Below are positions 3,761 through 4,051 of a stretch of DNA of 4,298 nucleotides, in pieces. Made by a program: the position numbers and the translations under genes. The DNA is from a virus. Its lineage: Duplodnaviria; Heunggongvirae; Uroviricota; Caudoviricetes. Positions within the stretch are counted from its first letter, which is position 1, and the number at the start of each line of letters is the position of its first letter. The stretch is from IMG/VR virus record IMGVR_UViG_2675903578_000005. The stretch is one strand, 5' to 3'. The notes beneath the pieces were generated by a model that saw only the letters and a program-made list of their open reading frames with translations, was not told the origin of the DNA and ran no database searches.

Positions 3761-3817
3761 CAGAGCGAGCGACTCATAATCGCCAGGTCGCTGGTTCAAG
3801 TCCAGCAAGGGCCACCA
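3761..3817 (+). tRNA. tRNA-Ile2 (anticodon CAU, lysidine type), 3' portion only; the 5' 19 nt or so lie in the N-run (full gene about 3742..3817)
   Basis: Visible sequence ...GAGCGAGCGACTCATAATCGCCAGGTCGCTGGTTCAAGTCCAGCAAGGGCCACCA has anticodon loop CTCATAA (CAT at 3775-3777), T-stem GCTGG/CCAGC with loop TTCAAGT, acceptor 3' strand AAGGGCC, discriminator A and CCA. It is near-identical to E. coli ileX over this stretch (from memory) and unlike elongator tRNA-Met. Confidence 0.7.
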
Positions 3818-3818
3818 A

Positions 3819-3895
3819 CCACCACTAGCTCATCCGGATAGAGCATCAACCTTCTAAGTTGACGGTGCGAGGTTCGAGTCCTCGGTGGTGGGCCA
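3819..3895 (+). tRNA. tRNA-Arg (anticodon UCU, reads AGA/AGG)
   Basis: 77-nt cloverleaf: acceptor CCACCAC/GTGGTGG, D-stem GCTC/GAGC with 9-nt loop, anticodon stem TCAAC/GTTGA with loop CTTCTAA (anticodon TCT), T-stem CGAGG/CCTCG with loop TTCGAGT, discriminator G, encoded CCA. Begins 1 nt after the preceding tRNA. Confidence 0.85.
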
Positions 3896-3897
3896 GC

Positions 3898-3973
3898 GCC
3901 GACTTAGCTCAGCAGGCAGAGCAACTGACTTGTAATCAGTAGGTCACCAGTTCGATTCCGGTAGTCGGCACCA
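3898..3973 (+). tRNA. tRNA-Thr (anticodon UGU), thrU-like
   Basis: 76-nt cloverleaf: acceptor GCCGACT/AGTCGGC, D-stem GCTC/GAGC, anticodon stem ACTGA/TCAGT with loop CTTGTAA (anticodon TGT), T-stem ACCAG/CCGGT (one A-C mismatch) with loop TTCGATT, discriminator A, CCA. Nearly identical to E. coli thrU as I recall it, with differences in the D-loop. Confidence 0.9.
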
Positions 3974-3976
3974 TAT

Positions 3977-4051
3977 GCGGGCATCGTATAATGGCTATTA
4001 CCTCAGCCTTCCAAGCTGATGATGCGGGTTCGATTCCCGCTGCCCGCTCCA
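3977..4051 (+). tRNA. tRNA-Gly (anticodon UCC), glyT-like
   Basis: 75-nt cloverleaf: acceptor GCGGGCA/TGCCCGC, anticodon stem TCAGC/GCTGA with loop CTTCCAA (anticodon TCC), T-stem GCGGG/CCCGC with loop TTCGATT, discriminator T, CCA. Appears identical to E. coli glyT from memory. Confidence 0.9.

Follow-up and report, generated by a model that had tools for sequence, protein, structure and literature searches.

Shiga toxin (Stx)-converting lambdoid phages, among them phage 2851 and those of the 933W type, carry a tRNA island, ileZ-argN-argO, which lies downstream of the antiterminator gene Q with the late promoter pR' and upstream of the lysis genes. A second lambdoid case is phage 21, where an Asn/Thr(UGU) pair of tRNA genes is located between tR' and the gene of a P21-type holin (PMC12445682). 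The tRNA clusters of T4 and T5 consist of closely packed, co-transcribed phage genes processed by host RNase P and have been proposed to serve codon supply and/or evasion of nucleases (PMC10264068, PMC12409363). On the chromosomal side, Escherichia coli and other Enterobacteriaceae possess a thrU-tyrU-glyT-thrT(-tufB) operon. Here we analyse an array of four tRNA genes, Ile2(CAU), Arg(UCU), Thr(UGU) and Gly(UCC), on a 4,298-nucleotide (nt) stretch of DNA from a virus of the Caudoviricetes (IMG/VR record IMGVR_UViG_2675903578_000005; the whole stretch is referred to as the window). Codon supply, i.e. the topping up of four minor host tRNAs by a self-contained "moron" in the lambdoid late region, is in our view the most likely and a probable function of this array. 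The locus works like the tRNA island long known from the late region of lambdoid phages and differs from it in composition, failing the narrow definition of that island on argO and on the UCG anticodon.

The window contains two N-masks, at 1203-1393 (191 N) and 3511-3760 (250 N). In identical contigs the real lengths are 248 nt and 246 nt, hence window coordinates across the masks are not collinear with the real genome. Coordinates of masked features were carried over from contig L090, one of six IMG/VR contigs with 100% identity to all unmasked parts of the window. ARAGORN called Arg(tct), Thr(tgt) and Gly(tcc) in the window, all on the + strand, and the Rfam model RF00005 (gathering score 29) scored them at 56.4, 69.8 and 64.9 bits, respectively, with E-values of 1e-10 to 2e-14. 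Ile2 is missed by ARAGORN in the window because the second mask cuts the gene: the first 20 nt are masked and only the 3' 57 nt are visible (3761-3817, including ...GCGACTCATAATCGC...CCA). The full gene of 77 nt with anticodon CAT is found by ARAGORN at 3796-3872 of L090, corresponding to 3741-3817 of the window (Rfam 70.5 bits). The first-pass annotation, made from the window alone, had placed the start of the array at 3761, which is the edge of the mask, while the gene begins at about 3741. Its four tRNAs with their anticodons and its spacers of 1, 2 and 3 nt were recovered by ARAGORN on the window and, for Ile2, on L090.

All four genes are on the + strand and were identified by ARAGORN and Rfam, for Ile2 on L090. 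tRNA-Ile2 (CAU, ileZ type) occupies 3741-3817 and is followed by a spacer of one A at 3818, tRNA-Arg (UCU, argN-type scaffold) at 3819-3895, a GC spacer at 3896-3897, tRNA-Thr (UGU) at 3898-3973, a TAT spacer at 3974-3976 and tRNA-Gly (UCC) at 3977-4051, the spacers being read directly from the sequence. With 56.4 to 70.5 bits against the gathering score of 29 and an ARAGORN call for each, all of them qualify as bacterial elongator tRNAs. The anticodon loops are canonical, of 7 nt with U33 and a purine at 37 (CUCAUAA, CUUCUAA, CUUGUAA and CUUCCAA), and each gene encodes its 3' CCA. All four loops equal those of the host cognates, which fits normal decoding.

Upstream of the array a sigma-70 promoter was predicted by promoter scan at 3702-3731 on the + strand (masked in the window; 3757-3786 in L090). 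It consists of TTTGCA/TTGCAG at a 17-nt spacing (TTGCAG-17-TATTAT), a C-rich discriminator of 9 nt and then the tRNA +1. Conservation was evaluated on 56 unique, otherwise divergent sequences upstream of ileZ-type tRNAs. The maxima of information content are at -38..-34 (TTGCA) and -15..-10 (TATTAT), the motif is in register in 48/56 sequences, and a G+C-rich stretch precedes +1. A promoter kept in register over divergent flanks indicates that the array is its own transcription unit inside the late operon. The array thus comprises four canonical tRNA genes in tandem, preceded by a conserved sigma-70 promoter of their own. This promoter also resembles host stable-RNA promoters, so that the array could be subject to growth-rate or stringent control.

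The first two tRNAs resemble those of the Stx-phage island. Ile2 is identical to ileZ of phage 2851 at 74/77 positions and to host ileY at 71/77. Its acceptor stem GGCCCUU/AAGGGCC contains the pairs C4-G69 and C5-G68, as in a tRNA-Ile2 body, and PGAP labels it tRNA-Ile; the "Met" label given by ARAGORN to the CAU tRNA derives from the anticodon alone. Both acceptor pairs are determinants for TilS. The Arg gene is identical to argN of phage 2851 at 64/77 positions, to host argU at 58/79 and to argO at 46/77. Its scaffold shows C1-G72 (an unusual acceptor start common to argN), A20 and G73, and it bears the anticodon UCU where argN has UCG. The argN scaffold with UCU thereby covers the role of argO in Stx phages. 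In an alignment of the argN family with argU and argO, 98% of the cells pair and compensatory changes occur in 13 of the 21 pairs, values reached by none of 500 shuffles. Moreover the CUUCUAA loop is conserved on scaffolds with differing stems. On account of the compensatory pairs and the retained loop, Arg looks like a tRNA under selection.

The window array hence shares with the Stx-phage island the site, Ile2-CAU in first position, an argN-type scaffold in second position 1 nt further on, the conserved promoter and the rare-codon logic. In contrast, the Stx-phage island continues with a 13-nt spacer and argO, whereas in the window argO is absent, the Thr-Gly pair follows after 2 nt, and the array is succeeded by a lysis cassette with no stx. 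Slot 2 reads UCU rather than UCG, and slots 3 and 4 are occupied by Thr(UGU) and Gly(UCC). The earlier view that a Thr-Gly pair had been appended to ileZ-argN-argO therefore has to be revised, since argO is missing and slot 2 holds a homologue of argN with a UCU anticodon. The tight spacing had been set against that of typical host tRNA operons; the distances of 1, 2 and 3 nt hold, but the 1-nt Ile-Arg junction is not peculiar to it, as the same A is present in phage 2851.

The third and fourth tRNAs are of host type. Gly is identical to E. coli K-12 glyT at 75/75 positions and Thr to K-12 thrU at 74/76; the two differences, U16C and U20C, are located in the D-loop and the anticodon arm is that of the host. 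The Thr-then-Gly order is also that of the host operon. In the latter, T-CAAGTCC-tyrU comes after thrU, and ...CCAGG-AT stands before glyT. The TAT spacer corresponds to the host T after thrU joined to the host AT before glyT and fits a deletion which kept 1 nt and 2 nt. As a deletion scar this split of TAT would be consistent with the sequence but is not proof, the chance that some such split matches being about 6% by estimate. The first-pass annotation had derived the pair from thrU...glyT minus tyrU, and the alignments, the order and the junction all agree with it. Unlike the host operon, however, the array is prophage-borne and lacks tyrU, the 8-nt and 116-nt spacers, thrT and tufB. With a 3-nt spacer and phage genes on both sides it is not an ordinary chromosomal tRNA operon, a possibility that had been named as a refutation.

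Among 120 sampled phage arrays the TAT spacer is present in 110, Thr equals thrU at 76/76 positions in 80 and Gly equals glyT in 102. These counts point to one ancestral capture that later spread by recombination. The D-loop variant of the window is found in 26 of the 120 and is a derived state. Since thrU and glyT of Salmonella are identical to those of E. coli, the donor of the pair cannot be named. Scans allowing Thr-Gly spacers of 0-30 nt revealed no intermediate that still holds tyrU: the distance was 3-4 nt in 120/120 viral loci and in the 8/8 genome loci for which match length was checked. A single locus from a different scan has a Thr-Gly gap of 103 nt that by eye is unlike tyrU. Likewise, no chromosomal thrU-glyT operon without tyrU was found as a donor among 185,579 species representatives searched with exact 18-mers, which yielded prophage-type hits only. 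Based on these comparisons, the array is a mosaic: its ileZ-argN pair belongs to a phage lineage, and its thrU-glyT pair derives from the host and has lost tyrU and nearly all of its spacer.

Codon usage carries the functional assignment. We compared 42 genes of K-12 with 52 coding sequences (11,298 codons) of a prophage that has the same array, its tRNAs being identical to those of the window and the 538-nt stretch 3761-4298 being shared at 99.6% identity. The cognate codons are over-represented in the prophage by factors of 5.7 (AUA), 10.5 (AGA), 3.1 (ACA) and 2.2 (GGA), each with p<1e-8, which bears out the earlier statement that they are rare in the host. Sorted by the phage/host ratio, the 61 codons begin with AGG, AGA, AUA, ACA, CGA and GGA. 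The cognate codons thus hold ranks 2, 3, 4 and 6; AGG, at rank 1, pairs with Arg-UCU by wobble, and CGA, at rank 5, belongs to the UCG form of slot 2. We calculate a chance of about 3e-5 that four random codons all fall into the top six of 61. In L090, the window's own phage (12 open reading frames, 2,663 codons), AGA ranks 1, ACA 3, AUA 4 and GGA 10. The same codons are enriched in early as in late phage genes. In K-12 the cognate tRNAs are encoded only once or twice (argU, thrU and glyT; ileX and ileY for Ile2). For thrU the low gene copy number is stated in the literature (PMC12445682). Given the ranks of the cognate codons, codon supply, already proposed in the first-pass annotation, is the best explanation of the array.

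Several points weigh against this assignment. Phage 21 has no Ile2, Arg or Gly tRNA and nevertheless shows the same bias (AGA 2, AUA 3, ACA 4, GGA 8). The bias is therefore generic to lambdoid phages, and codon usage gives no clue as to which of them have the array. The enrichment of GGA is modest at about twofold. Gly, and in most arrays also Thr, are exact host copies that could partly be kept by gene conversion and not by selection for dosage. Finally, a phage tRNA-Thr(UGU) can act in counter-defence (PMC12445682).

The genomic context agrees with the late-region location claimed for the array. By Pfam and Rfam, the order of genes is DnaB-like helicase, RusA, Q, the pR'/isrK leader, C4 and sRNA-Xcc1 motifs, ORF6N and the tRNA array. 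The late antiterminator gene Q (2096-2503, +; PF06530 Phage_antitermQ, E=2.7e-52) marks the start of the late region. It is followed by a predicted pR'-like late promoter TTGACC-18-TATATT at 2508-2537 (+; promoter scan, 2567-2596 in L090) and by a short leader RNA of the isrK type at 2544-2620 (+; Rfam isrK 77.5 bits) with a U-run terminator at its end. Rfam motifs in the same leader are the c4-a1b1 targets (2531-2583), the C4 antisense RNA (2646-2729, 71 bits) and sRNA-Xcc1 (2863-2946, 77.4 bits). Judging from these motifs, the leader from 2531 to 2946 looks like an antisense control module of the P1/P7 immI type (c4, then an ant-like gene) placed in a lambdoid late leader; such an arrangement has been described for IsrK of Gifsy-1. 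Directly upstream of the array lies an ORF6N gene at 2978-3546 on the + strand (PF10543, E=9e-21; 3037-3605 in L090), the end of which is approximate as its 3' end is masked; in E. coli VL40 the matching place bears the PGAP label "ORF6N domain-containing protein". An intrinsic terminator 3' of ORF6N, masked in the window, was predicted by terminator scan at 3627-3648 (+; 3682-3703 in L090) and consists of AAACCCGCCGATGAGCGGGTTT followed by a T-run.

Downstream of the array follow about 680 nt of non-coding sequence and then the genes for a P21-type holin S, lysozyme, Rz and terminase. The array is thus located between Q/pR' and the lysis genes on the late strand, and three annotated E. coli prophages have it in the same position. 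The part of the non-coding stretch that falls into the window (4052-4298, +) is the 3' trailer of the tRNA unit. No structured RNA was detected in it, with no Rfam match and a fold z-score of -1.6 that is not significant. The next intrinsic terminator after the array was predicted by terminator scan at 4365-4384 of L090, just past the window end.

Codon supply by the array may proceed as follows. In the lysogen the array would be transcribed from its own promoter, and after induction Q-antiterminated late transcription would be added, with Q-modified polymerase running from the pR'-like promoter through to the tRNAs. RNase P would cut the 5' end of each tRNA and leave the upstream tRNA with a trailer of 1-3 nt, which host 3' exonucleases would trim back to the encoded CCA. 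Host enzymes (TilS for Ile2, turning its C34 into lysidine, arginyl-tRNA synthetase for Arg and others) would then modify and charge the tRNAs. With the extra copies more of these tRNAs would be available, and phage genes, possibly along with further genes of horizontal origin, would be translated faster.

In an alternative, the array mainly serves the host cell and not phage growth: expressed in the lysogen from its stable-RNA-like promoter, it would help to translate acquired virulence or cargo genes rich in rare codons and thereby favour retention of the prophage. Its own conserved promoter, set apart from late transcription by the terminator upstream, speaks for such a benefit to the lysogen, as does the persistence of arrays in many apparently degraded prophages, with up to several copies per genome. 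Moreover, a prophage with an identical array carries the type III secretion system effector gene ipaH, which uses 19.7 AGA per 1000 codons. However, a benefit to the host is indistinguishable from supply to phage genes, the same codons being enriched in early and late phage genes, and activity of the promoter in the repressed state is deduced from sequence only. We consider this explanation unlikely, though it stands up better than those that follow. As a side observation, AGA usage of ipaH is about 28x that of the host sample. The prophage of E. coli FDAARGOS_944 (L190), whose array tRNAs equal those of the window, encodes besides ipaH (43761-45587) the epoxyqueuosine reductase QueH (14800-15465), a tRNA-modification enzyme.

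A different class of explanations concerns anticodon nucleases. Cells infected with lambda are killed by P2-OLD, which cleaves the anticodon stem of host tRNA-ThrU(UGU) behind the C of paired CNG motifs, and phage Thr(UGU) tRNAs, including that of phage 21, rescue cells from it (PMC12445682). Resistance resides in the anticodon arm and needs both a change of the motif and a shorter stem, either alone giving no protection, and over-expressed host tRNA-ThrU offers little or none (PMC12445682). AriB of the PARIS system acts on Lys(UUU), Thr(UGU) and Asn(GUU), and its cut falls between positions 40 and 41, UAAUC|A (PMC12409363). The phage 21 pair (L192, 39591-39746) consists of tRNA-Asn and tRNA-Thr(UGU), 5 nt apart and right after tR', i.e. 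at the genomic site of the array. Asn codons rank 18 and 33 in phage 21; being unenriched, they fit a defence-related rather than a codon-related role of that pair.

Sister arrays of the window carry Thr alleles that bear on this point. In E. coli VL40 (L002, 8190-8265) and about 12 IMG/VR contigs (a subset of L193-L214) the thrU-derived Thr shows G42U/U43C, on at least three D-loop backgrounds. Positions 27:43 and 28:42 are unpaired by these changes, the stem is shortened and the second CNG motif turns into CAU. In its 3' half this allele equals a different family of phage Thr tRNAs, an indication of gene conversion. In another two contigs the stem is GAUGA/UCAUC, fully compensated and free of CNG. 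On sequence grounds the changes in these sister alleles match the published recipe for OLD resistance.

Slot 2 (window counterpart 3819-3895) is strikingly plastic over about 180 sampled loci, with a conserved body and a differing anticodon region (examples are L008 3058-3134, L009 3057-3136, L035, L011, L064, L094, L150 and L157). The loop CUUCUAA (Arg-UCU) is present in about 35 loci, and CUUCGAA (argN-UCG) occurs too. About 61 loci show a conserved non-canonical CCUUUAA loop with C33, annotated as "tRNA-Lys", in which positions 39-41 differ from the AriB site, and some copies have no anticodon arm at all. A second slot-2 scaffold has a near-invariant body while 4-5 nt at the anticodon vary by lineage (CCAGG, CATAG, TAAA, TTAA, TTTA and others), as much as only the spacers between the tRNAs do. 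ARAGORN assigns this scaffold to ???, Phe-AAA, Leu-UAA and even Stop-UUA. It may be a tRNA-shaped element with an unconstrained loop, the body of which is kept perhaps for release of the neighbouring tRNAs by RNase P. An idea that the slot-2 loop is an attachment site for prophage-in-prophage integration was dropped; the attB sites of PMC8112680 (yecE, ykgJ-ecpE, ompW) come without mention of a tRNA. In arrays that consist of the Thr-Gly pair only, such as 14 of the loci, tRNA-Thr is preceded at a distance of 2-3 nt by a long hairpin, GGTTCCGAGGG...CCCGAGGAACC, which is conserved.

These variants have led us to consider that the four-slot family is not simply a codon supplement but an evolving counter-measure platform against the tRNA-cutting Toprim nucleases of competing P2/P4-type elements. 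Slot 3 may start as a thrU copy and gain stem changes of the OLD-resistance type in several lineages, and the anticodon of slot 2 may have been rewritten repeatedly (UCG, UCU and the CCUUUAA "Lys-UUU" with 39-41 unlike the AriB site). The window copy may then be the "naive" state of the arms race; alternatively, its Thr, lacking the two dihydrouridine sites U16 and U20, could be recognised differently by an uncharacterised nuclease. We hold this scenario to be doubtful.

For the window itself it is improbable that the array replaces host tRNAs cut by nucleases of P2/P4-type elements, notably P2-OLD and PARIS AriB. Its Thr shares the anticodon of host tRNA-Thr(UGU), the prime target of P2-OLD and a prime target of AriB (PMC12445682, PMC12409363), and the rescue by phage Thr(UGU) tRNAs, the shared site with the phage 21 pair and the sister alleles all favour such a role. 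The anticodon arm of the window Thr, however, reads ACUGA/UCAGU (A27-C-U-G-A31 / U39-C-A-G-U43) with UAAUC|A and is identical to that of thrU, leaving both CNG motifs and the AriB site intact. From this arm and the published determinants it should be cleaved like the host tRNA. The stem is neither altered in its motifs nor shortened, and the protection by host tRNA-ThrU described above is little at best. Gly is 100% host-identical, and the Ile2 and Arg anticodon loops are those of the host as well. The two D-loop transitions, the only differences of Thr, are at positions implicated by neither paper. A D-loop-based counter-defence, as envisaged in the first-pass annotation, is thus not borne out, because the known nucleases of Thr(UGU) act on the anticodon stem (PMC12445682, PMC12409363), here the host's. 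Given the host-type Thr arm, the host Gly and the host loops of Ile2 and Arg, counter-defence is rated low for this locus, not zero.

The comparison with other phage tRNAs is in line with this. The Thr of phage 21 shares the lambdoid site and the UGU anticodon with the window Thr but is unrelated to thrU and has an altered, shorter anticodon stem, whereas the window Thr has the host arm. With an identity of 52/77, we rejected the assumption that the window Thr is the OLD-resistant tRNA of phage 21. The tRNAs of T4 and T5 are diverged and phage-specific, several with cleavage-site substitutions, in contrast to the window with 2/4 host copies and host anticodon loops.

Least probable of all, and in our opinion very unlikely, is a near-neutral passenger that is carried along by lambdoid recombination and stays intact through its shortness and gene conversion with thrU and glyT: slot 2 is visibly dispensable in sister arrays (arm deletions, degenerate loops, copies uncalled by PGAP) and scattered single-copy Thr and Gly variants with stem-breaking changes exist, but Ile2, Thr and Gly are near invariant in the sampled arrays while spacers and flanks vary, the promoter is in register despite divergent flanks, the Arg-UCU loop is kept on scaffolds with compensatory stem differences, and the anticodons correspond to the head of the codon-deficit list.

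The array is common in E. coli and routinely annotated in RefSeq. At a coverage of at least 80% of a 311-nt query, the Ile-X-Thr-Gly array is present in 603 of 5426 complete E. coli genomes (~11%). The Arg-UCU type of the window (at least 99% identity) is limited to about 10 of these 603, with CFSAN029787 at 100%; the 3' trailer of the window is also present in 63 genomes. The same array, with tRNA annotations by PGAP, is found behind different Q genes and in different prophage backbones. In genomes sampled one per species, the tight Thr-Gly junction is restricted to E. coli, Shigella flexneri, Citrobacter braakii and Enterobacter hormaechei. Only three phage records in GenBank contain all four slots, at ~94% identity. 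Among the papers accessible to a literature search on ileZ/argN/argO and this tRNA combination in prophages, none describes the array.

Taken together, the locus is a clean example of how tRNA cargo of temperate phages is assembled, by combining a phage-lineage pair with copies of minor host tRNAs stripped of their spacers. The assembled array lies beside the lysis genes, the classic place for cargo, and is preceded by a promoter of host type. That its anticodons match the over-used codons favours the classical view of codon supply in temperate coliphages, in a period in which phage tRNAs are more and more often ascribed to counter-defence. The sister alleles provide a natural series for tests of P2-OLD and PARIS specificity. 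Such arrays add copies of argU-, ileX-, thrU- and glyT-type tRNAs to about one tenth of E. coli strains, and these extra copies may affect the expression of virulence genes rich in rare codons and of recombinant genes.

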